DNA from: a virus
Taxonomy: Duplodnaviria > Caudoviricetes
Length of the DNA: 64,000 bases
Virus record (IMG/VR): IMGVR_UViG_3300042558_004043
Strand: one strand, 5' to 3'
Shown here piece by piece: positions 13,828 through 47,012 of the stretch. Both the position numbers and the translations under genes were made by a program. The notes under the pieces are model-generated. The model had not been told where the DNA came from and searched no databases. It saw nothing but the letters and a program-made list of their open reading frames with translations. Within the stretch, counting starts at the first letter, position 1; every line of letters begins with the position of its first letter.

Positions 13828-16011
13828 TCAAGGCCATTGTGTTACTGTGAATGTTGAACTAGGTCCTGGATATGGAAATATATGTGAATACGGTCCTGGA
13901 GATATATTAGAGTCTAAATAAGTCGCACTAATTACTCTAATTGTAAAAGTTAAAGGTAAATTTTGAGATATTTGTTGATAATTAGTTACACTAAAAAACC
14001 AATTTGCGATAATTTCATCTTCTGATGATATAAAAGTTTGAGAATTTAGATAATTAGTATTAATTATCCCAACTACTCCACTAGAATTGGCGCTAAAAAT
14101 TACACTACTGGTGACAGGTGAAAAAATAATATTGTTGTTATCACCTGTCGACAGTTCTAAAACTACCTTACTTATACTAAAATTTGAATGATTTAAAAGA
14201 CTAACTCTCCACGATACTCCATATTGTGATAAAGTAGACCATGAAGAAAAATTAGAAGCATAAGGACCAAATAGGTTAATATCGATATTTAAAGGAAAAT
14301 TAGAAAAATCATTTGATATCTCAATTATTGAGCTGTCTTGAGCATATCCGTAAGAACCAATATTTACAAGTTCGTCCCATATTTGGGCTTTTGCAAAAAT
14401 TGTTTTATTACCTATAGGATAGTTTAAAGGTAATAAAATTCTGCTAATATTTAGCATGATTTCAGATATTCCGCTATAAGTATACTCATTAAGTAAAATA
14501 CATGATTGGGAATTAAACCACATTGAATCACATAAATAAAATTGGATTGTTAGATATTCAGTACCTAATATTAAGTTAGTATCTAAAAATGTTGTTGTGG
14601 TTTCGATGTTAACAAAGTCGCCTAATATAGTATTTCCTGATATATTTGTAATTTCAATTGAAATCGGTTCGTTATTAATCCAATTATAATCTTCTTGAGG
14701 TAATAAATCTATCGCTCCTTGAACTGCCGCTTCATGGTCAACAATTCCATAACCTAATTCATTATTATAACCATTTTCATCAAAAACATAACCTTCGGTT
14801 CCTGCAGTTTTTCTCGCAGTTTCTGATAATATATTTATGACTTGAGTTGAGGTTAAATTTGGATTTACATATATCATTGTGGCTGCAACTGTACCCAAAA
14901 TAGGAGTAGAACTCGATGTTCCATCGGCAATCAATAAATTCTGATGTGTATATAACGTATCTTTCCATTTTCTAGACATTGTAACTGGGTGTATGTTAGG
15001 AAATGGTAAACTACTACCCCATCTACCCCTAACACTCAAACTCATTATATTTTCACCTGGAGCACACATAAATAAACCAGGACCCCACTGAGAAAATCCG
15101 GATTTATTATTCAGAGCATTACTAGCGCCTATACCGTATACATTTGGATGAAAATTTATAGGCATCACCGAATCCATCCCATAATTTCCGGTACCACTAA
15201 AAAATGATATACCTTTACCATTTCTTCCGTTTTCTGTAACATAAGTAATTACGTCACCTGCTAAACCTGTATAAATCGACTCGGAACTATAGTATACTTG
15301 ATTTGTAATTGCAACACACTTAGGATTATTGAATACCGCATACAACATCTCAATAAACATAAACTGGGAGGAACCAAAACCTCCACTTTGTAAATCGTAA
15401 GTGATTTCACTACAATACATTTGTCTGTTAGTTACCACTTGAACTTTAACCTTATCTTTACCAGCTGACAGCATTAAATCGTTGTTGGAATTTCTTGCGG
15501 CAACAAGACCGGCAACTCCGGTTCCGTGGTATGGAATATCACCAAAAATATCTCCGCAATTGACAAGCTCACTAAATTTAACATCGTAGTCATTAGGAGA
15601 AATGTCAGAACTAAAAAGTGAAAGTACATTTACGCTATAATCACTTATTTTACCAATTAGTTCAGGATGACCAACATCTACTAAAGTATCAAAAATTGCA
15701 ACCTCTACAGGTTCATTATCAGGAAATTGATTCATCAAGTCCCAGGCTTCTCTAGAGTTTATATTTTGTAAATACCAATGATAAGGATGGTCATAAGTAA
15801 ATTCATAAGTATTTGATACTTCTGTTAATATATCTAATTCTGAAGTTTCCACAAATGATAATGTATCAATTTTGTTTTTAAAATCATTTATATTTTCATT
15901 AATAGGAATTTCGACAACTATTAAATCAAATTCATCGTATTCTCTTTTTACGTTGATTTTATTATTGGCACAGTAATTTAAAAAATCTAAATAGTTTTTT
16001 TCTGAATTCAT
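13828..16011 (-). CDS. S8 subtilisin-like serine peptidase (paralogue A)
   Basis: Asp VAIFDT, His YHGTGVAGLVAA, oxyanion GTGN, Ser GTSSSTP. Confidence 0.88.
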   Translation of the reverse strand: MNSEKNYLDFLNYCANNKINVKREYDEFDLIVVEIPINENINDFKNKIDTLSFVETSELDILTEVSNTYEFTYDHPYHWYLQNINSREAWDLMNQFPDNEPVEVAIFDTLVDVGHPELIGKISDYSVNVLSLFSSDISPNDYDVKFSELVNCGDIFGDIPYHGTGVAGLVAARNSNNDLMLSAGKDKVKVQVVTNRQMYCSEITYDLQSGGFGSSQFMFIEMLYAVFNNPKCVAITNQVYYSSESIYTGLAGDVITYVTENGRNGKGISFFSGTGNYGMDSVMPINFHPNVYGIGASNALNNKSGFSQWGPGLFMCAPGENIMSLSVRGRWGSSLPFPNIHPVTMSRKWKDTLYTHQNLLIADGTSSSTPILGTVAATMIYVNPNLTSTQVINILSETARKTAGTEGYVFDENGYNNELGYGIVDHEAAVQGAIDLLPQEDYNWINNEPISIEITNISGNTILGDFVNIETTTTFLDTNLILGTEYLTIQFYLCDSMWFNSQSCILLNEYTYSGISEIMLNISRILLPLNYPIGNKTIFAKAQIWDELVNIGSYGYAQDSSIIEISNDFSNFPLNIDINLFGPYASNFSSWSTLSQYGVSWRVSLLNHSNFSISKVVLELSTGDNNNIIFSPVTSSVIFSANSSGVVGIINTNYLNSQTFISSEDEIIANWFFSVTNYQQISQNLPLTFTIRVISATYLDSNISPGPYSHIFPYPGPSSTFTVTQWP

Positions 16012-16013
16012 CT

Positions 16014-16382
16014 TTATATAACTATTACTCCTTTTATGTTATTACCTAACGGTTCTGTTAACGTGTGAGTCAACGTAAGTGGTTGTGTTTGAGGTGTCGG
16101 GCTTGGTGTGGGAGTCGGGCTTGGTGTGGGAGTCGGGCTTGGTGTGGGAGTCAAACTAACACTATTAGATATTTTAACTATAAGAAAACTTGTTGGAATT
16201 TCATTTGGGTTATCCGTTTCTATTATTCTTGAAACTCTAGAACCAACTCGTTTGGTAACACCTTCTTTATAAACAATTATTTTTAAAGGAGGATAAACTT
16301 TTAAAATGGTATCTTCTTTTTGACCTCTGGCTAATTCTCTTTTAAATGAGGTTGACGTTCTGTGAAAAACTATTTGATTCAT
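16014..16382 (-). CDS. hypothetical protein with Pro/Thr/Ser linker
   Basis: TPTPSPTPTPSPTPTPSPTP. Confidence 0.55.
   Translation of the reverse strand: MNQIVFHRTSTSFKRELARGQKEDTILKVYPPLKIIVYKEGVTKRVGSRVSRIIETDNPNEIPTSFLIVKISNSVSLTPTPSPTPTPSPTPTPSPTPQTQPLTLTHTLTEPLGNNIKGVIVI
16096..16152. repeat. 18-bp tandem repeat x3 (coding PTPSPT)
   Basis: gtcgggcttggtgtggga three exact copies. Confidence 0.9.
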
Positions 16383-16412
16383 ATTATTTAAATTTTATTT
16401 TATTTTATTTTA

Positions 16413-18536
16413 TTACGGCCAATCAGTCACATACAAGGTAGTTGTACGTTCTCCATTTTGGAATGTTCGTGCCCCTTCACCTTCGAACCATGTAAAAAAT
16501 ATTGTGTCCACGTTAATTGTTATATTTGAAGGTAATGAATTTATTATAGGGGTAGGGTCAACTCCAAAGGACCAATAGAAAATTTGGCTTTCTGATTGTT
16601 CTAAATAAAAAGTTGTACTTAAGTCTATTGGGGGTTGGAAAGTTTCGAAAAATTGATAAGTTGTGGAATAATCTTCATTATTAACTGATAATGATAATAC
16701 GGCTCTGAGCAATGGCATATCCCCCGTATTAGTTAGTTTAATTTTCATAGCATAACCCAAAGGTTGTGTAGTTTGAAAATAAGGAGTACTTGGAACTACC
16801 TCTAAAAACTCTATTTGAATATCAGGACTTTGGTCATCTATCGGTGAAATGTGAGATATCGTCAAGGGTATCTCGTCATAAACGAAACCATTTGTAATCT
16901 CAACAAAATTAGCATCAAATATACTTGATTGTGCTCGTAAAGTTGAGGAATTAACTGTATCAGGAAGATTCGGTACCTGTATCCAATGAGAGTTTTCATT
17001 GAATTCAGTTAACTGAGACCCGTCGTATGTTTGCTCAAATAAAATTGGGTCTTGCGGAGTAAAAATTCCGTCCCACGAAATTGAAATCTTTATTACCAAA
17101 TATTCTACTGAACTTAATATTAAAGGATTAATTTGAGTCATGGTCTCAATCTGAAACCATTCCACTTCATTAGCACTTTCCTGTGATTGGGTAATTGTAA
17201 TTCCTATCTCCTCATCACCTAACTCCCAATTGGACGGTCTAGCGTCTATTGCGGCTTGAATCGCGGCTTCATGGTCTATTATCCCATAACCTAATTCAAT
17301 ATTGTATCCATTTCCATCGAAAACATATCCTTCAGTTCCAGATGTTTTTCTTGCTGTTTCCGATAAAATACTTATGACTTGAGTTTTTGTTAATCTTGGA
17401 TTTACATAAATCATTGTTGCTGCAACCGCAGCAACAATAGGTGTCGAACTCGACGTTCCGTTGGTTATTAACAAATTTCGAGCTGTATTTACGTAATCTT
17501 TTTTATTTCTGGGTTTTACTGTACCAAAATTCGGAGATGGTAAACTAGCCCCCCATATACCTCGGACACTTAAGGTCATTATGTTTTCACCAGGAGCACA
17601 AATGAATAGTCCATCTCCATAATTTGAAAATCCGGCTCTATTATCTAAAGCATTACTTGCTCCAACACAAAAAACATTAGGTTCACTACAAAATTGGTTA
17701 AGAGTTGATAACGATTGGTTGCCAGAACTAGCAAAAATTGGTATACCCCTTCCACTTCTTCCATTTTCAGCAACATAGTCAATCAAATAATTCATTATGA
17801 TATTTGGAGGTGGGAAAGTTTTTTGTAGTGTTATTACAACACATTTTATATTATTAAATGCGGCAAACAATTGTTCTATAAAGGCCCAACTTGAATTATA
17901 ATTAGGGATTAAAATATTATTATAACATGTCATGTAACTTTCAGTCAATACTTGTATTTTAACTTTGTCATTAGATGCCGATAACATCATATCATTATTA
18001 GAATTTCTCGCGGCTAATAATCCAGCACAACCTGTACCATGGTATATGTTTGAACATCCTGTATTACATGCATCTAAACCGCATTCCGCCAAAATACCAA
18101 AATCAACATAATAATCATCAGGACCTATGTCCGAAGAATAAAACGAAAGTACATTAATACTAGAATCACTTATTTTACCAATTAACTCAGGATGACTAAT
18201 ATCTACTAATGTATCAATCATTGCAACCTCAACAGGTTCATTATCAGGAAATTGATTCATCAAATCCCAAGCCTCCATAGATTTTATATTTTGTAAATAC
18301 CAATGATAAGGATGGTCATAGGTAAATTCATAAGTGTATTCGGTCTCGAATAACAAGTCTAATTCTGAAGTTTCAACAAATGATAATGAATCAACTTTAT
18401 CTTTGAAATCATTTATATTTTCATTAATAGGTACCTCAACAATTATTAAATCAAATTCATCAAATTCCCTTAATATCTTAACTTTATTTTGAATACAAAA
18501 ATTCAAAAATCCTAAATAATTTTCTATTGATTTCAT
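16413..18536 (-). CDS. S8 subtilisin-like serine peptidase (paralogue B)
   Basis: Asp VAMIDT, His YHGTGCAGLLAA, SSGN, Ser GTSSSTP; N-terminal part closely similar to paralogue A. Confidence 0.88.
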   Translation of the reverse strand: MKSIENYLGFLNFCIQNKVKILREFDEFDLIIVEVPINENINDFKDKVDSLSFVETSELDLLFETEYTYEFTYDHPYHWYLQNIKSMEAWDLMNQFPDNEPVEVAMIDTLVDISHPELIGKISDSSINVLSFYSSDIGPDDYYVDFGILAECGLDACNTGCSNIYHGTGCAGLLAARNSNNDMMLSASNDKVKIQVLTESYMTCYNNILIPNYNSSWAFIEQLFAAFNNIKCVVITLQKTFPPPNIIMNYLIDYVAENGRSGRGIPIFASSGNQSLSTLNQFCSEPNVFCVGASNALDNRAGFSNYGDGLFICAPGENIMTLSVRGIWGASLPSPNFGTVKPRNKKDYVNTARNLLITNGTSSSTPIVAAVAATMIYVNPRLTKTQVISILSETARKTSGTEGYVFDGNGYNIELGYGIIDHEAAIQAAIDARPSNWELGDEEIGITITQSQESANEVEWFQIETMTQINPLILSSVEYLVIKISISWDGIFTPQDPILFEQTYDGSQLTEFNENSHWIQVPNLPDTVNSSTLRAQSSIFDANFVEITNGFVYDEIPLTISHISPIDDQSPDIQIEFLEVVPSTPYFQTTQPLGYAMKIKLTNTGDMPLLRAVLSLSVNNEDYSTTYQFFETFQPPIDLSTTFYLEQSESQIFYWSFGVDPTPIINSLPSNITINVDTIFFTWFEGEGARTFQNGERTTTLYVTDWP

Positions 18537-20027: not shown

Positions 20028-21836
20028 ATGAAAAAAATATTATTACCGTTTTTATTGTCTTTAATCTTTTTAAGTTCTCATTCCCAATGCTCGGGTGATG
20101 TAACTTTTACTTTGGATACTCCACCTGCGGCTGACCTTACATATCCGCCTAATACCGTTGTTGAGTTATGTGTTACAATGACAAATTGGAATGGAAATGC
20201 TCAAGGTTCTAATTGGCTCGAGGGATTTGGATTAGCTCTTGGAACAGGATGGATTAACGTTACTCCTGTGACACCACCTAATGATGCGGATAATGATGCA
20301 AGCGGAACTTGGATTTGGGTTAATACTGTCACATCCGATGCCACGGGCCTTACTGCGGGTCCAGGTTATTTCTTCGAGGGGCCATCAGGAACTATAGACG
20401 GAAATCCTGGAAATGATTGGGGTGACTATTGTATGAATGGTGATTGCGTGTGGGAATTTTGTGTATCTATGACCGCATCGGGTATTAGTGCCGACCCTCT
20501 CGATATTGAAGTAACTCCATATTCTGATGGAACTATGGGGAGTTGGGGAACCGAAATGTGTTTTGACCCTCCTGTATCTATTTTTGACGGTGAGGTTGGT
20601 TGCACGGTATATGGATGTACTAATCCAATTGCTTGTAACTATAACCCAAACGCGGGTTGTGATGACGGAAGTTGTAACTTGCCTGGATGTACTGACCCTA
20701 TCGCTTGTAACTATGATTTAAATGCCGATTGTGATGACGGTAGTTGTACATACCCTGGTTGTACTGACCCACTCGCTTGTAACTTTGTTGCAACAGCGGG
20801 ATGTGATGATGGAAGCTGTGATTATTTTAGTATGAGTGATATTACTCACAACTTCATTCCGTGTCCTGATACAACCTGTACTGGTTCAGAGGTAATGTAT
20901 TCTGTTAATGGAGATGAGACTTCAATTTACGATTGGCACATTACCGGAGGTGGGCTTGTAACCACTGACCAAACTTTTAGTTGTGAAATAATTTGGGGTA
21001 ACATACCTGGAACTTATACAATAACAGTTCAGGAGATAACAGAGAGAGGTTGTGTTGGTGATATTAAAACTTGTGATGTTGAGGTTATTATTCCCGATAT
21101 TACATTTGATGAAACTGAATATACAATTTGTTTAAACGGTAGTTTGGATATGACTGCGTCTCCTCCTGGTGGAAGTTGGTCTTCTGAATTTATGAATCTC
21201 AATACATTTATCGGAACAAAACCTGGAACATATTATCCGTCATATATCAAAAACATTCACGGATGTGATATTAGTGAATCAGTTAAAGTAAAAGTTAAAT
21301 CAAAATACGACGCTCCACCAATCACTTTCGCATCTGAATATATTGACCTATGTTTAGAATCAGGTGAGGCTTATTATCTAACACCTGACTCACTAAACTA
21401 CACATACAGTTGGTTTATTGAAAACGCAAAACAACCTGAATCGAGTAATCAATTATTCACTCAATGGCCTGATACATCTCGTGTCTATCTAATTAAAGTA
21501 ATTGGTTATGATGAAATTGGATGTGAGAGTGAGCCGAGTTTAATGTCAATCAAAGTTGAGTCTTGTCAAAGATTCTTCGCACCAAATTCCTTTACTCCAA
21601 ATGGGGATGGGACAAATGATATATTTGAACTGCGAGGTATGTCAGTTTACCAACCGACACTTAAAATATTTGATAGGTGGGGTAATGTGGTTTATCAGTC
21701 AAACAATTTATGGTGGACCGGAGATTGTGGAACTGGTTACTATTGTAACACAGATGTTTATAATTGGTTAATTGAATACCGTGATAAGGACGGATTTAAT
21801 AAAGAAGAAAGAGGTTTTGTAACACTTGTAAGATAA
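20028..21836 (+). CDS. secreted Cys-rich protein with T9SS type B (gliding motility-associated) C-terminal domain
   Basis: signal peptide; GCTDPxACN repeats; C-terminal FAPNSFTPNGDGTNDIF...IFDRWGNVVY...GFVTLVR. Confidence 0.88.
   Translation: MKKILLPFLLSLIFLSSHSQCSGDVTFTLDTPPAADLTYPPNTVVELCVTMTNWNGNAQGSNWLEGFGLALGTGWINVTPVTPPNDADNDASGTWIWVNTVTSDATGLTAGPGYFFEGPSGTIDGNPGNDWGDYCMNGDCVWEFCVSMTASGISADPLDIEVTPYSDGTMGSWGTEMCFDPPVSIFDGEVGCTVYGCTNPIACNYNPNAGCDDGSCNLPGCTDPIACNYDLNADCDDGSCTYPGCTDPLACNFVATAGCDDGSCDYFSMSDITHNFIPCPDTTCTGSEVMYSVNGDETSIYDWHITGGGLVTTDQTFSCEIIWGNIPGTYTITVQEITERGCVGDIKTCDVEVIIPDITFDETEYTICLNGSLDMTASPPGGSWSSEFMNLNTFIGTKPGTYYPSYIKNIHGCDISESVKVKVKSKYDAPPITFASEYIDLCLESGEAYYLTPDSLNYTYSWFIENAKQPESSNQLFTQWPDTSRVYLIKVIGYDEIGCESEPSLMSIKVESCQRFFAPNSFTPNGDGTNDIFELRGMSVYQPTLKIFDRWGNVVYQSNNLWWTGDCGTGYYCNTDVYNWLIEYRDKDGFNKEERGFVTLVR
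20613..20828 (+). repeat. 3x 24-aa GCTxPxACN...CDDGSC repeat
   Basis: visible in translation, 72-bp period. Confidence 0.8.
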
Positions 21837-41980: not shown

Positions 41981-42838
41981 TCAAAATTTGTTTACATCAC
42001 CATAATTCATGTGTAATTCATCGTGAGAGTCTTTCATCATTTGATATGCTCTGGCAAGACGAGTTAAACCAATACCTCCACCAAATCTTTTAAAGAATTT
42101 GTGAGATAAAAACTCTTCAAGTTCTTTTTCAACTCTTTCTTTACCAAACAATTCAAACAATTTGGCAGAATAACCACCGTTTTCTATAGTATAGAACATT
42201 TGTCTCATTTCATCAACATCACAACTTCTTTCAGCAGAACCAATTGTTTCTTGACCGTAAAGAATAACGTCTACTTTATTGAATTTGTCACCTTCACCTG
42301 ACTTCATGTTCCAAAATGGGTTAGTTCTAACAGGGAAATTTTGTAATGACACCACATCACCTTTTTCTTTCCACATTTTAGTTTCGTGTTCGTTTTCCAA
42401 AATCGGAACTCCGCCATATTCTTCACAAACATCGTCATAATTCACTTCAACAGGAGAATCAAAACCTAAAAACGCAAGTAATTCAGATTCTAATTTAAGT
42501 AATTCTTTCATACCACCCTTTGACTCGAATTCAAACATTGGGAAGATTAATTCGTGACGACCTGGGATTGGGTCTTTTTCTTGTCTGTATGATGTTGAGA
42601 TACAGAACACACCTGGCCATTCGGAATTTTGTAACAATTCATACTCTAACCACATTTGACCTGTTTGTGGTAATGGCCAAATTTGACCTTGATACTCAAA
42701 CGTTGTGATTGAGTGTGGATTCTCACATGCTGCGAGAATTGATAATCTTGATTGGGTCGGAACCTCAAGAAAACCTTTGTTTAGGAAAAAGGTCCTCATC
42801 TTTTGGACCAACTCGTGATAAATTTTTGTGTTTTTCAT
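41981..42838 (-). CDS. class II aminoacyl-tRNA synthetase catalytic-core paralogue (AsnRS/AspRS-like, no anticodon domain)
   Basis: LPQTGQMWLE, motif 2 SYRQE...GRH..IFPMFEFE, ETIGSAER, motif 3 GGGIGLTRL; only 285 aa. Confidence 0.8.
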   Translation of the reverse strand: MKNTKIYHELVQKMRTFFLNKGFLEVPTQSRLSILAACENPHSITTFEYQGQIWPLPQTGQMWLEYELLQNSEWPGVFCISTSYRQEKDPIPGRHELIFPMFEFESKGGMKELLKLESELLAFLGFDSPVEVNYDDVCEEYGGVPILENEHETKMWKEKGDVVSLQNFPVRTNPFWNMKSGEGDKFNKVDVILYGQETIGSAERSCDVDEMRQMFYTIENGGYSAKLFELFGKERVEKELEEFLSHKFFKRFGGGIGLTRLARAYQMMKDSHDELHMNYGDVNKF

Positions 42839-42851
42839 ATTACTTTAGGGT

Positions 42852-42877
42852 AAAAAAAAACCTCCCGAAGGAGGTTT
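42852..42877 (-). terminator. intrinsic terminator in the 5' leader of the aaRS-like gene
   Basis: minus strand AAACCTCC-TTCG-GGAGGTTT within a T9 tract, ending about 13 nt before the ATG. Confidence 0.8.
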
Positions 42878-42881
42878 GCGT

Positions 42882-42911
42882 TTATTTATTATTTATTAAA
42901 TTCTTGTTCAT
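42882..42911 (-). promoter_or_regulatory. putative Asn-rich leader peptide MNKNLINNK
   Basis: ATG AAC AAG AAT TTA ATA AAT AAT AAA TAA between a TATTTAT motif and the terminator. Confidence 0.5.
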
Positions 42912-42982
42912 TTTGAAATAAATACGAGATAAAGTTGAAAACTAAATATATTTTTTAATTTTTTTTTGTAATATTTATAGAT

Positions 42983-44023
42983 ATGAAAGTTTTGTTATCT
43001 GAGAACCAATTGAAAACACTTATTAAAGAAGATTTGGGAGTCTCCCGGGTTTCCTTGTCCTACAGTAATTTGATATACCAAAAACTCGAACCTAAGGTCC
43101 TTGAATTTATGGAATCAAGAATTCCATCCAAACAAAAAATCATTATAGACTTGAAAGATATTTCACAAATTTTTCAATCAAGTATGGATGATTATATTGA
43201 GTTACCCGTGGAAAAAATTGAAATTGATTTTTCTTGTTTGAAAATTCCAAAAAATACAAAAGAAAACAGATTCACGTCAGGAGGAGGATTTCAATCAATA
43301 GACAAAAAATCATTTGGTGGGTCATATTTAAAATCACCCACACTTGAGTTACCTAAGTATATTTTGGAGGAGATTACTCAAACTTTGTATGTAAAATTAT
43401 TTATAAGTTTTAAAATAGGGATTGAGTTCAATGAAGAATTGAAAGACAAAGCACTATATGACCTTAGAGATACGATAATTCACGAATGTAATCACATGTT
43501 AGAGAGTTATCGAAGGGCTGAATCAGGAGCAAAACAATTTAATACCACCTTGAGTTGGGTTGGAGGTAAAAACTATAACGTAAACAAAGAAATTTACAAA
43601 GTTTGGCAAGAATTTTTGGATATGATATACTATTCAGAACCATATGAAGTAAATGCAAAATCACAAGAGGCGGTTAGCCAAACATCAATATTACCCTTTG
43701 AAGAATTCAAAAAAACTAAACTTTGGTCCAACGCATCAGTCATGAAAAACTTTGATGCCGATACGTTTTTTGATAAGTTGACAAATAAAATTCAAGAAGT
43801 GAACCCCGATAAACTACTGTCTATTTTGAACAATTTATATAAATGGTTTATGACCGATTATTACAAATGGATGAGAGTTTACGGTGAAAAACCGGCACGG
43901 TATATAGAAAAAACTGAAGGTTTGTTAGATTTGATTAATAATTTCCAACCAAGAATCAATAAGGCCGGTGACAAACTGCAAAGAAATTTCATGAGATTAT
44001 ATACTTTAGAACTCGAAAAATAA
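42983..44023 (+). CDS. leader-bearing protein with HExxH motif
   Basis: MKVLLSENQLKTLIKED; IIHECNHML; EPYEVNA. Confidence 0.6.
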   Translation: MKVLLSENQLKTLIKEDLGVSRVSLSYSNLIYQKLEPKVLEFMESRIPSKQKIIIDLKDISQIFQSSMDDYIELPVEKIEIDFSCLKIPKNTKENRFTSGGGFQSIDKKSFGGSYLKSPTLELPKYILEEITQTLYVKLFISFKIGIEFNEELKDKALYDLRDTIIHECNHMLESYRRAESGAKQFNTTLSWVGGKNYNVNKEIYKVWQEFLDMIYYSEPYEVNAKSQEAVSQTSILPFEEFKKTKLWSNASVMKNFDADTFFDKLTNKIQEVNPDKLLSILNNLYKWFMTDYYKWMRVYGEKPARYIEKTEGLLDLINNFQPRINKAGDKLQRNFMRLYTLELEK

Positions 44024-46759: not shown

Positions 46760-46888
46760 TTATTTTTTTCCTTGACCTCTGTAAGCTTTGGGTTTTTCTT
46801 CTTTTGGTCCGTACTTTCTTTTAGACTTTCCTTTTTTACGTGTACCAAAAGTTTCTTTAGACCCAACAGCGCTACCTGATTTTGCCAT
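46760..46888 (-). CDS. 42-aa highly basic peptide ending YRGQGKK (not in ORF track)
   Basis: MAKSGSAVGSKETFGTRKKGKSKRKYGPKEEKPKAYRGQGKK; TATTTAT upstream. Confidence 0.7.
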   Translation of the reverse strand: MAKSGSAVGSKETFGTRKKGKSKRKYGPKEEKPKAYRGQGKK

Positions 46889-47012
46889 AATTTTTATTTT
46901 TTAGATAATTTATTTATTATATAAATATTAGGGCAACAAAAAAGGGGACAGTAGCGAACTTCCCCTTTTCCTGTTATGTAACATAACGGTCCTAAGACTC
47001 CTCTTTCGAGGT

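Follow-up and report, generated by a model that had tools for sequence, protein, structure and literature searches.

Upstream of an AsnRS/AspRS-like gene in a giant (jumbo) phage of lake water, whose host is probably a member of the Bacteroidota, we find a compact leader made of a promoter-like motif, a nine-codon open reading frame (the mini-ORF) rich in asparagine codons, and an intrinsic terminator. The whole stretch of DNA analysed, 64,000 nucleotides in length, is referred to here as the window. Because the leader travels as a unit with the gene in many related phages, it is probably an on/off switch that is read by a ribosome and that has an uncommon design, with a hairpin as its only RNA structure. 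The reading that we favor, and that we hold tentatively, at slightly under even confidence, is that it may act as a ribosome-dependent attenuator in which the ribosome is the only competitor of the hairpin and which is made sensitive to the supply of Asn-tRNA. Lake-water DNA sequencing runs contain a fraction of 0.73-0.99 of the sampled words of the stretch, and six metatranscriptome runs only 0.09-0.18.

Comparison with the sequence of the window placed every minus-strand element of the original prediction (the motif, the MNKNLINNK frame, the hairpin, its U9 tract and the gene start) at the position that had been claimed for it (Table 1). The mini-ORF reads ATG-AAC-AAG-AAT-TTA-ATA-AAT-AAT-AAA-TAA, such that four of its nine codons specify Asn and two of these form a tandem pair. 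The hairpin, for which a scan counts four G-C pairs and which has five in its CCTCC core (CCTCC/GGAGG), is the sole stable structure that folding finds in the window leader, at -10.9 kcal/mol on its own. It had been described as starting 4 nt after the stop codon, which is accurate only when three A-U pairs are counted as stem; the CCTCC core itself starts 7 nt after the stop. The gene ATG, at 42838, follows 13 nt past the T-run, and the short spacer that precedes it has no Shine-Dalgarno sequence. In Bacteroidota, the phylum of the probable host, translation starts without Shine-Dalgarno pairing. A divergent gene occupies the plus strand at 42983-44023, separated from the controlled gene by 144 nt; the spacer being divergent, there is no upstream minus-strand gene for the terminator to serve. 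No phage tRNA-Asn gene was found within the window.

Table 1. Elements of the leader and its immediate surroundings, in window coordinates.
Feature	Position	Strand	Remarks
TATTTATA motif of the divergent neighbor	42972..42979	+	Context only, outside the leader; the neighbor gene starts 3 nt on
TATTTATT, start-proximal promoter-like motif	42917..42924	-	5 nt before the mini-ORF ATG; promoter role putative
Leader mini-ORF, 9 codons plus TAA, MNKNLINNK	42882..42911	-	Asn at codons 2, 4, 7 and 8
Terminator hairpin AAACCTCC-TTCG-GGAGGTTT	42858..42877	-	8 bp
T9 tract	42852..42860	-	First three T pair with AAA at the stem foot
ACCC directly after the T-run	42848..42851	-	Form that the GCCC box takes in the window
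Short A-rich spacer TAAAGTAAT before the gene ATG	42839..42847	-	No Shine-Dalgarno sequence
Controlled gene, 285-aa class II aaRS core, AsnRS/AspRS type	41981..42838	-	PF00152, phrog_29758

In related phage loci, the mini-ORF and terminator are conserved and specific to this gene. The unit, defined as the motif, an ORF of at most 45 codons and a terminator, was found 47 times in 80 such loci, and in a survey of 227 terminator-like hairpins from the window and these loci all 47 units precede the aaRS-like gene, with the genes upstream of the unit falling into at least 30 different clusters and both orientations. Among 60 distinct regions upstream of the gene's relatives, 47 contain a perfect hairpin followed by T7-9, placed 10-47 nt upstream of the ATG. 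The leader is absent from marine, cyanophage and giant-virus relatives, and distant marine relatives (L091-L094) present instead a terminator, TATAAATA, a Shine-Dalgarno sequence and then the gene. A search for distant relatives with P0133 returned zero viral loci, and the upstream regions of cellular homologues showed no consistent Asn-rich ORF. No Rfam leader family matched: the best scores in the window were 30.7, 28.4 and 24.5 bits against thresholds of 54-56, the last of these for Phe_leader (threshold 55), and twelve loci yielded one tRNA and otherwise nothing.

The motif ahead of the mini-ORF belongs to a pattern, TATTTATW, whose total count in the window (40, against 29.9 +/- 5.4) is not above chance, so that it is informative only by its position relative to gene starts. 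By that measure, 25 of the 40 copies have the ATG of an ORF of at least 60 aa within 30 nt on the same strand (12% for permuted 7-mers), with gaps that fall into two classes, 3-6 and 12-24 nt, and the same motif stands ahead of the mini-ORF at a gap of 4-5 nt in most relatives. This placement suggests that the motif is a promoter with a transcription start nearby. Between terminator and gene, TATTTAW occurs in none of the 47 loci; the spacer from T-run to ATG measures 10-47 nt in relatives and is 62% A. The prediction that the terminator must be read through is supported by the 0 of 47 loci with a downstream motif and by the 13 nt left in the window: the gene is reachable only by polymerases that pass the terminator, which makes the leader an attenuator by position. 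A T4-type late promoter, AATAAATA, downstream of the terminator was rejected as a general explanation and kept as a minor rival.

The terminators of these leaders are diverse in sequence and distinctive in type. Relatives carry 29 distinct stems at this place, and when the inner 7 bp of 11 stems with four-nucleotide loops are aligned without gaps, all seven pairs prove to be changed on both sides; since pairing was built into the selection of the stems, only their diversity is informative. RNAalifold returned zero pairs for the MAFFT-aligned terminators because loop and stem lengths differ. A run of T8-9 ends 34 of the 38 distinct leader terminators, other terminators of these phages having mostly T6-7, and the T-run is followed by [GA]CCC in 24 of the 38 and in 0 of 129 other terminators. 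The G/ACCC box may help pausing or strengthen the terminator, and U8-9 together with GCCC, a combination confined to these leaders, is a candidate pause signal; no pause hairpin was found by folding of the leader. Measured from where the stem starts, the stop codon ends between -18 and +11 nt, except in three families in which the ORF runs through. Ordinary gene-end terminators of the same phages are equally close (median stop-to-stem gap 5 nt, 60% within 11 nt), and we therefore rejected the notion that a stop codon beside the stem is special.

Folding of full and truncated leaders from 20 representatives revealed no antiterminator helix, as the original prediction had supposed. Nothing pairs with the 5' arm of the terminator, and leaders cut before the 3' arm fold at only about 0 to -2 kcal/mol in most families, with the 5' arm unpaired.

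The reading frame of the mini-ORF is conserved. All 22 leader families keep the ATG frame open as far as the hairpin; among the 17 that were tested it runs open to 11 nt or less from the stem in every case, against 7.4 in shuffles and 7 of 17 for each of the other two frames (product of shuffle probabilities, 2e-7), and the frame is open too in the five families added later. By this comparison the open frame is under selection, and we infer that the mini-ORF is translated. Its peptides range from 7 to over 40 aa, share no motif or C-terminal residue, and end in K, I, S, T, F, V, M, Y, N, L or R.

Asn codons are enriched within this frame, as had been proposed. Across the 22 families they number 60 of 286 (21%), against 34.2 +/- 5.4 (12%) in stop-free shuffles (z about 5), and across 17 families 49 of 209, against 25.7 +/- 4.4 in stop-free shuffles (z 5.3) and 24.2 under a codon-usage-aware, composition-matched null (z 5.4), although these z-scores overstate independence because the 17-22 families are related by descent and several share the same stem. 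Asn is the sole strongly enriched residue of the mini-ORFs; AAY triplets account for 23.6% in frame and for 8.3% and 4.1% out of frame, and the share of Asn is 6.4% in the phage proteome and 6.1% among the first 15 codons of long ORFs. A tandem NN pair is present in 8 of 17 families, where 2.4 would be expected, but in only 1 of 48 N-termini of long ORFs, and such pairs persist while the remaining peptide sequence varies. About half of the families account for the excess: the two families L005/L024 and L178 contain no Asn at all, and in the five later additions Asn does not exceed background (11 of 77 codons). Conservation upstream of homologues, which had been put forward as the check on the prediction, holds for the short ORF, kept in 22 leader families, and for the Asn excess in only about half of them. 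Alternatively, the AAU-rich triplets could form a motif at the level of the RNA, which the open frame does no more than accommodate.

We propose that these elements would work together as follows. The AUG, 5 nt past the motif, would probably lie at or beside the 5' end of the RNA, followed by the nine-codon ORF, a strong intrinsic terminator with its foot 4 nt past the stop, ACCC and the gene AUG. As the leader RNA is unstructured, only a ribosome can compete with the hairpin. A ribosome finishing the mini-ORF would cover the 5' arm of the stem and allow the polymerase to pass; were the ribosome not yet loaded, or held at the Asn codons, the hairpin would be free to form and transcription would end. 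The long U-tract and G/ACCC may prolong the dwell of the polymerase at the release site, thereby widening the ribosome's time window. The gene would accordingly be made when charged tRNA-Asn is plentiful, a polarity that is the least certain part of the scheme. Its basis is geometric: Asn codons are found 13-31 nt upstream of the stem in the window and concentrate 18-35 nt upstream of the G/C core across families, a distance at which a stalled ribosome could not cover the stem, which argues against the classical polarity. The geometry hence suggests a gene that is off under Asn shortage, the opposite of what would suit an enzyme that makes Asn.

Work in Escherichia coli shows that a ribosome is able to turn a terminator off. 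A terminator that was about 90% efficient with a stop codon 28 bp ahead of it fell to under 10% once the stop was brought to within 5 bp, and terminators placed in a coding region's first 100 nt escape the ribosome, which still lags behind the polymerase at that point (PMC4824070). Counting against our proposal, the phage leader spans only some 60 nt and contains no pause hairpin. A more specific version, in which a jumbo-phage Asn sensor, leaderless and free of any antiterminator, lets the arrival of the first ribosome at the U8-9 and GCCC terminator decide read-through into the gene of a tRNA-independent AsnRS-like ligase, made only when charged tRNA-Asn is plentiful, seems to us doubtful as a whole.

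The same anatomy could be read without an amino-acid signal. It is conceivable, if on the unlikely side, that the leader is a constitutive damper or insulator, which would let a fixed small fraction of the transcripts from a strong promoter extend into the gene or tie read-through to general translation, with the mini-ORF kept since transcripts start at its AUG and get translated anyway. Such a device would account for a promoter motif, open frame and terminator that are universal (22 of 22 families) beside an Asn excess in about half, and for the lack of a switchable structure; many long genes, moreover, carry the same motif 3-6 nt before their ATG, and since ordinary genes also end a few nucleotides before terminators, the mini-ORF looks, by its stop-terminator gap, like a normal, very short gene. 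What a damper leaves unexplained is the roughly twofold enrichment of Asn alone over nulls that allow for composition and codon usage, the persistence of NN pairs amid a changing peptide, the confinement of the U8-9 and GCCC terminator type to this gene, and a frame kept open up to the stem.

A second arrangement, which we consider improbable, would divide the region into two units: a self-contained short transcript, and a gene transcribed from an unrecognized promoter that overlaps or follows the terminator, with the hairpin serving only to shield the gene from the promoter upstream. The unrecognized promoter could be of an early or middle phage type, or the A-rich AATAAATA stretch of many relatives. 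An ATAAATA-like string does stand between GCCC and the gene start in about half of the relatives, the conserved GCCC could itself belong to such a promoter or start site, and the order of elements in L091-L094 is of this kind. However, a spacer that is 62% A would contain ATAAATA-like strings frequently by chance, sense ATAAATA does not recur before other genes of the window, and the absence of TATTTAW extends to 47 of 47 loci; in the window's own group only 10-13 nt separate T-run and ATG, and the window's AATAAATA repeat sits upstream of the hairpin, inside the mini-ORF. Less probable still, in our estimate, is that the short transcript or its peptide is itself the product, either an Asn-rich peptide made in excess over a ligase, by the logic of mccA-mccB, or a protein-binding small RNA with AAY repeats and a U-tail. 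The terminated RNA would indeed consist of an A-rich stretch, a hairpin and U8-9, but the AAY triplets keep to the ATG frame, a constraint unneeded for a motif of RNA alone. MccA-type substrates need a C-terminal Asn, and the phage peptides conserve neither length, motif nor C-terminal residue; the enzyme, likewise, is a class II aaRS core (PF00152) rather than of the ThiF/MccB type. In favor of a peptide product, the microcin C operon has the same order of a very short ORF, an intrinsic terminator and the gene of an adenylate-forming enzyme (PMC4231749).

Comparison with known systems places the proposed attenuator between several of them. Classical attenuators (E. coli trpL, hisL, pheL, thrL and leuL, and pheM before pheST) combine a short translated ORF rich in codons for one amino acid, an intrinsic terminator and a gene tied to that amino acid or to tRNA charging, with a ribosome reading the signal, a plan that the phage leader would share. 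Unlike them, the phage leader is unstructured, having neither an antiterminator (2:3) helix nor a pause hairpin, is about 60 nt long and probably leaderless, and holds its Asn codons too distant from the stem to mask it. The pyrBI operon senses UTP via polymerase pausing at U-runs, and its leader ORF runs through the terminator. In the phage, by contrast, most families have their stop codon shortly ahead of the stem or within it, there is no U-run other than that of the terminator itself, and a cognate-looking codon bias is present. With E. coli pyrBI/pyrE (cited in PMC4824070) the phage leader shares the lack of an RNA switch, and on our proposal it would also share a ribosome that blocks the terminator and read-through that reflects how closely the ribosome trails the polymerase.

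Short ORFs that begin at or next to the RNA 5' end have been described elsewhere. Leaderless leader peptides of Deinococcus deserti sense an amino acid and are predicted to be classical attenuators (PMC4007540), and mycobacterial polycysteine ORFs act on translation, opening a helix that hides the downstream ribosome-binding site (10.1101/834739). Both resemble the phage leader, with its putative 5'-terminal start, in where the ORF begins, in the enrichment of one amino acid and in an aaRS or amino-acid gene downstream; they differ in belonging neither to phages nor to Bacteroidota, in not being described as using Asn and in depending on alternative RNA helices (PMC4007540; 10.1101/834739). 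In the microcin C operon, a ribosome-controlled terminator sets a high ratio of peptide to enzyme (PMC4231749). The mccA-mccB pair resembles the phage unit in having a very short ORF, of 7 codons in that operon, an intrinsic terminator right after it and a gene for an adenylate-forming enzyme, and ribosome binding decides termination, as it would on our proposal (PMC4231749), but there the ribosome induces termination and the peptide, with its obligatory C-terminal Asn, is the substrate of the enzyme, whereas the phage peptides are not conserved and the enzyme is of another family.

Leader-peptide attenuation is a textbook subject, and to our knowledge nearly all described cases involve competing RNA helices and come from few bacterial phyla. 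If the proposed reading is correct, three parts would make up the whole switch, namely an AUG at the 5' end, a few sensor codons and a single hairpin, competition between ribosome and terminator would alone suffice for amino-acid-specific control, and the polarity would be opposite to the textbook one. To our present knowledge and within the literature searched, the leader would also be without published precedent, both as an Asn leader peptide and as a leader-peptide switch of a phage of Bacteroidota; the search found no published Asn leader peptide, a negative that does not prove absence. Such a switch would offer a compact regulatory part for Bacteroidota, and the GCCC box a testable handle on how sequence past the terminator tunes the decision. 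It would, finally, tie a widespread and uncharacterized AsnRS/AspRS-like enzyme to asparagine.

That enzyme, a protein of 285 aa, matches Pfam PF00152 (6.7e-14) and phrog_29758 (4.9e-93). Searched against PDB sequences, the family profile finds AsnRS (2e-14), archaeal AspRS (1.6e-13), archaeal asparagine synthetase A (1.9e-7) and GenX (7e-5), and Foldseek ranks AsnRS and AspRS at the top for an AlphaFold2 model with a pLDDT of 95.5. Together, profile and model indicate that the enzyme is a truncated class II aaRS core of the AsnRS/AspRS branch, a placement that does not tell Asn from Asp. The claim that the codon bias matches the specificity of the enzyme was therefore right as to the Asn excess and went too far as to the match, the AsnRS and archaeal AspRS scores being nearly the same. 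The protein lacks the anticodon-binding OB fold of AsnRS and reaches 22-24 bits against NCBIfam cut-offs of 343-414.

In its architecture the enzyme recalls AS-AR (PDB 3P8T/3REX), an AsnRS paralogue that is likewise a class IIb core alone, of about 290 aa, without an anticodon-binding domain. Archaeal-type asparagine synthetase A converts Asp and ammonia to Asn. The predicted structure has this core-only architecture and an AsnRS-like fold; it aligns with AS-AR at a TM-score of 0.69 in both directions and 22% identity, although full-length AsnRS and AspRS score better in the profile comparison (2e-14 and 1.6e-13 versus 1.9e-7). Of five cellular genomes that carry the gene, none has AsnA, one has a full-length AsnB and one an AsnRS above the cut-off, a distribution that counts neither for nor against a role as asparagine synthetase. 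The family is also present in Patescibacteria/CPR, small DPANN-type archaea, Coxiellaceae, Dependentiae, Weeksellaceae and giant viruses.

Within the window, the leader sits in a 144-nt spacer with divergent genes on either side, and a check of the sequence shows that the order and positions of its elements were read correctly in the original prediction. The hairpin had been placed 4 nt past the stop codon of the mini-ORF, a nine-codon frame encoding MNKNLINNK; this distance holds for the foot of the stem, whereas the CCTCC core begins at 7 nt. Folding of the leader RNA returns the hairpin as its sole stable structure.

Coordinates of leader elements and other features in the window, and loci (L-numbers) in which relatives of the gene carry other upstream arrangements
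Feature	Position or loci	Strand	Remark
Promoter-like motif TATTTATT	42924-42917	minus	5 bases before mini-ORF ATG
Mini-ORF, ATG AAC AAG AAT TTA ATA AAT AAT AAA TAA	42911-42882	minus	
ACGC	between mini-ORF stop and hairpin	minus	
Hairpin AAACCTCC-TTCG-GGAGGTTT	42877-42858	minus	
T9 run	42860-42852	minus	first bases supply hairpin's last three pairs
ACCC, then nine bases	directly 3' of T9 run	minus	
ATG of the gene	42838	minus	
The gene, 285-aa ORF	41981-42838	minus	
Divergent neighbour, 346-aa ORF	42983-44023	plus	no family matches; then DnaK
FopS-like Rfam match	42828-42890	plus	antisense to gene start; ends at leader hairpin
Fasciclin and Por_Secre_tail protein gene	1605-2747	plus	type IX sorting domain
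CHU_C protein gene	20028-21836	plus	type IX sorting domain
Second leader type	L021, L023, L040, L041, L048, L058, L183, L186		~80 nt before gene's ATG
Second leader type	L082:1400-1460		
CPR terminator leader	L107, L117, L124, L127, L140, L142, L145, L147, L165		100 nt before gene
Coxiellaceae / Weeksellaceae-Moheibacter upstream sites	L110, L113, L114, L122, L136, L150 and L103-L106, L111, L121, L129, L132-L134, L157		

Comparison with 80 viral loci whose gene product is 75-91% identical to that of the window (60 distinct upstream regions) revealed a perfect hairpin of at least 7 bp and at least three G-C pairs, followed by T7-9, lying 10-47 nt ahead of the ATG in 47 of the 60 regions. These hairpins use 29 different stem sequences, and a gap-free alignment of 11 stems with four-base loops contains changes on both sides at all seven pairs; the way the stems were selected ensures pairing, and it is their diversity that constitutes the evidence. 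At 40 loci a TATTTAW motif precedes the hairpin and is followed, mostly 4-5 nt on, by the ATG of a short ORF, the peptides being 8-43 aa long and unalignable between families of related leaders. The window and the 80 loci together contain 227 terminator-like hairpins; all 47 units of motif, short ORF and terminator found with these precede the gene, and their upstream neighbors, divergent or co-oriented, fall into at least 30 clusters. The unit is thus conserved and dedicated to this gene. The spacer between terminator and gene is 62% A and lacks TATTTAW in 47 of 47 loci. Because the unit is bound to the gene and no such motif follows the terminator, the gene seems reachable by read-through only, barring a hidden promoter of unrecognized type, as was anticipated from a terminator placed just before a start codon. 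At two loci (L043 and L049) the mini-ORF holds an additional small hairpin, AAGGTATCACCTT pairing with ACGGTATTACCGT, ~20 nt ahead of the terminator, in which a compensatory change of A-T to C-G preserves the pairing; this element may be a pause hairpin particular to that leader family. Rfam's Bacteroidetes FopS sRNA family is matched below threshold (30.7 bits vs 56, E 0.008), probably on account of the terminator alone.

Inspection of the mini-ORFs indicates that the reading frame itself is maintained. The 17 families of the initial set all keep the ATG frame stop-free to within 11 nt of the stem, as compared with 7.4 of 17 in shuffles and 7 of 17 for each of the other two frames (product of shuffle probabilities 2e-7); the five families recognized later are likewise open, so that the predicted uORF is kept ahead of the gene in all 22. 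Asparagine accounts for 49 of 209 codons (23%) in the 17 families, against 25.7 +/- 4.4 in stop-free shuffles (z 5.3) and 24.2 under a null drawn from phage codon usage tilted to leader base composition (z 5.4). No other residue is comparably enriched in these families, and lysine is depleted. AAY accounts for 23.6% of triplets in frame vs 8.3% and 4.1% out of frame. The long ORFs of the window contain 6.4% asparagine overall and 6.1% within their opening 15 codons. Tandem Asn-Asn pairs are present in 8 of 17 families, where 2.4 would be expected, and at 1 of 48 N-termini of long ORFs. Across all 22 families the count is 60 of 286 vs 34.2 +/- 5.4 (z 4.8), with the five later families at background (11 of 77) and two families devoid of asparagine; some stems are common to several families, which implies shared ancestry, such that these z-scores overstate independence. 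The excess is therefore real and frame-tied, yet confined to about half of the lineages, so the Asn codons are conserved in part.

The motif ahead of the mini-ORF recurs elsewhere in the window. Its overall count is not above chance (40 copies of TATTTATW vs 29.9 +/- 5.4), but 25 of the 40 have the same-strand ATG of an ORF of at least 60 aa within 30 nt, as opposed to 12% for permuted 7-mers. Motif-to-ATG gaps in the window are bimodal, at 3-6 nt and 12-24 nt, and the divergent neighbor's copy lies 3 nt ahead of its ATG. This placement relative to starts argues that TATTTATW is a genuine start-proximal signal in this phage, and we infer from sequence that it acts as a promoter and fixes the start site. 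Genes with the 3-6 nt gap, the mini-ORF included, probably yield leaderless or nearly leaderless RNAs.

The terminators of these leaders are also distinctive. The T-run is 8-9 long in 34 of 38 distinct leader terminators and is immediately followed by GCCC in 22 of 38 ([GA]CCC in 24 of 38, the window's version being ACCC); the 129 other distinct terminators in these sequences usually have T6-7, and in none of them does GCCC follow the run. A pyrimidine at the RNA 3' end, with G next and a further G some ten bases back, is similar to the pause consensus of E. coli polymerase, and a G+C-rich block within A+T-rich DNA would hinder forward movement of the enzyme; we therefore suspect that the GCCC box lengthens polymerase dwell at the release site. 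The window's sole other T-run with GCCC lies on the minus strand at 46886-46960, where the order is the usual one of terminator and then promoter motif: a hairpin, TTTTTTTGTTGCCC, three bases on TATTTATA, an A-rich leader and the ATG that opens a highly basic protein of 42 aa (MAKSGSAVGSKE...).

How might such a leader operate? When the 3' arm is cut off, the leaders of most families fold at ~0 to -2 kcal/mol and leave the 5' arm unpaired, bearing out the earlier remark that no antiterminator helix is evident. Because no switch helix competes for that arm, classical attenuation is excluded, and the ribosome is the hairpin's only possible competitor. The mini-ORF stop codon ends between -18 and +11 nt from the stem start in all families but three, whose frames run through the stem, and Asn codons peak 18-35 nt before the first G/C pair (32% of codons), being rarer near the stem (18% at 0-11 nt) and farther off (about 10%). 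An E. coli study puts the free RNA needed for hairpin folding at about 10-15 nt between A site and stem, and reports that terminator efficiency fell from about 90% to below 10% with a stop codon placed 5 bp ahead (PMC4824070). A ribosome paused at an Asn codon would accordingly leave the hairpin free, and one reaching the stop would cover the 5' arm. Since the Asn codons lie too far away for a stalled ribosome to cover the stem and the stop codon lies near, the geometry suggests read-through upon smooth translation and termination if Asn-tRNA runs short or the ribosome is absent. Two observations weaken this argument and with it the suggested polarity: ordinary gene-end terminators of these phages are equally near stop codons (median 5 nt), and in E. 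coli, terminators in the first 100 nt of a coding region escape a ribosome still behind the polymerase (PMC4824070), this leader being ~60 nt long.

We tentatively favor a ribosome-read attenuator tuned by Asn codons, a reading we hold at somewhat under an even chance. A constitutive damper would suit the families lacking asparagine and the nearness of ordinary terminators to stop codons, and would leave the frame-tied excess unexplained; we regard it as possible, if rather unlikely. That motif, ORF and terminator are separate from a gene served by a hidden promoter is improbable: an A-rich spacer could harbor an unfamiliar signal, but none of the 47 loci has TATTTAW there. The peptide or short RNA might itself be the product, a reading disfavored by peptides unalignable between families and the least likely of the four. 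The unit works like leader-peptide attenuators but lacks their defining antiterminator helix. In design it is nearest to pyrBI, where the ribosome blocks the hairpin, and to the leaderless ORFs with a sensory role in Deinococcus deserti (PMC4007540) and mycobacteria (10.1101/834739); the mccA-mccB unit (PMC4231749) is similar in gene order. The literature searched, incomplete in coverage, yielded no published Asn leader peptide or phage leader-peptide switch.

The controlled gene matches Pfam tRNA-synt_2 (6.7e-14) and an unnamed PHROGs family, with no NCBIfam model near its cut-off. A profile built from 48 diverse relatives and scored against PDB sequences ranks AsnRS (2e-14) and archaeal AspRS (1.6e-13) ahead of archaeal asparagine synthetase A (1.9e-7), GenX (7e-5) and LysRS (about 1e-4). 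Foldseek, run with a confident AlphaFold2 model (pLDDT 95.5), likewise places AsnRS and AspRS at the top, and core-only asparagine synthetase A aligns at TM 0.69 in both directions with 22% identity. These scores and rankings point to an AsnRS/AspRS-type core without an anticodon domain, Asn and Asp use not being told apart; of the claimed match between codon bias and specificity, the Asn excess stands, whereas near-equal AsnRS and AspRS scores would fit either amino acid. With 427 representatives at E values up to 1e-10, the family is a large one, and it has cellular homologs of 55-62% identity in CPR bacteria, small DPANN-type archaea, Coxiellaceae, Dependentiae, Weeksellaceae and Chitinophagales MAGs. 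Of five cellular genomes with the gene, none has AsnA, one has full-length AsnB and one has an AsnRS scoring above cut-off, which speaks neither for nor against a role as asparagine synthetase. Giant-virus (NCLDV) MAGs carry the same core-only AsnRS/AspRS-like gene at ~55% identity; five such contigs (GVMAG, L196-L200) are AT-rich upstream of it and have no hairpin leader.

Other relatives bear different upstream arrangements. In the phage group, a second leader type comprises GATATATAMA and, after ~25 nt, a covarying hairpin, then A10, TTTCT (or TGCCT) and the ATG; it has neither mini-ORF nor U-tract, and read in either direction it does not form a terminator. A T9-hairpin-A10 version occurs in LR756501, a phage of 735 kb. 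In marine and cyanophage-type relatives the gene either is part of an operon or comes after a terminator, TATAAATA and a Shine-Dalgarno sequence, in that order. Some CPR copies follow a terminator with T7-8 and then GCC(C), which opens a second hairpin, with a T-rich stretch after it and no Asn-rich ORF; G[CT]CC comes next after the T-run in 6 of 24 CPR upstream terminators vs 1 of 63 others, and this arrangement may represent an older, gene-linked leader. Coxiellaceae copies have a conserved palindrome, TTTGCGCGCAAA, ~80 nt upstream, and Weeksellaceae/Moheibacter copies have TTTGCGCCAATTTATGCAAA; both look like transcription-factor operator sites, a third mode of control of the same gene.

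The window has a G+C content of 31-35% and genes on both strands, is present in lake-water sequencing runs, and has as relatives IMG/VR viral contigs from lakes of up to 465 kb. Type IX secretion is known only from Bacteroidota, and C-terminal sorting domains of this system (CHU_C and Por_Secre_tail) in two window proteins indicate that the host probably belongs to that phylum, in agreement with missing Shine-Dalgarno sequences and A-rich stretches ahead of start codons. The phage seems to use the host secretion route. Two 700-aa subtilases are encoded at 13828-18536.
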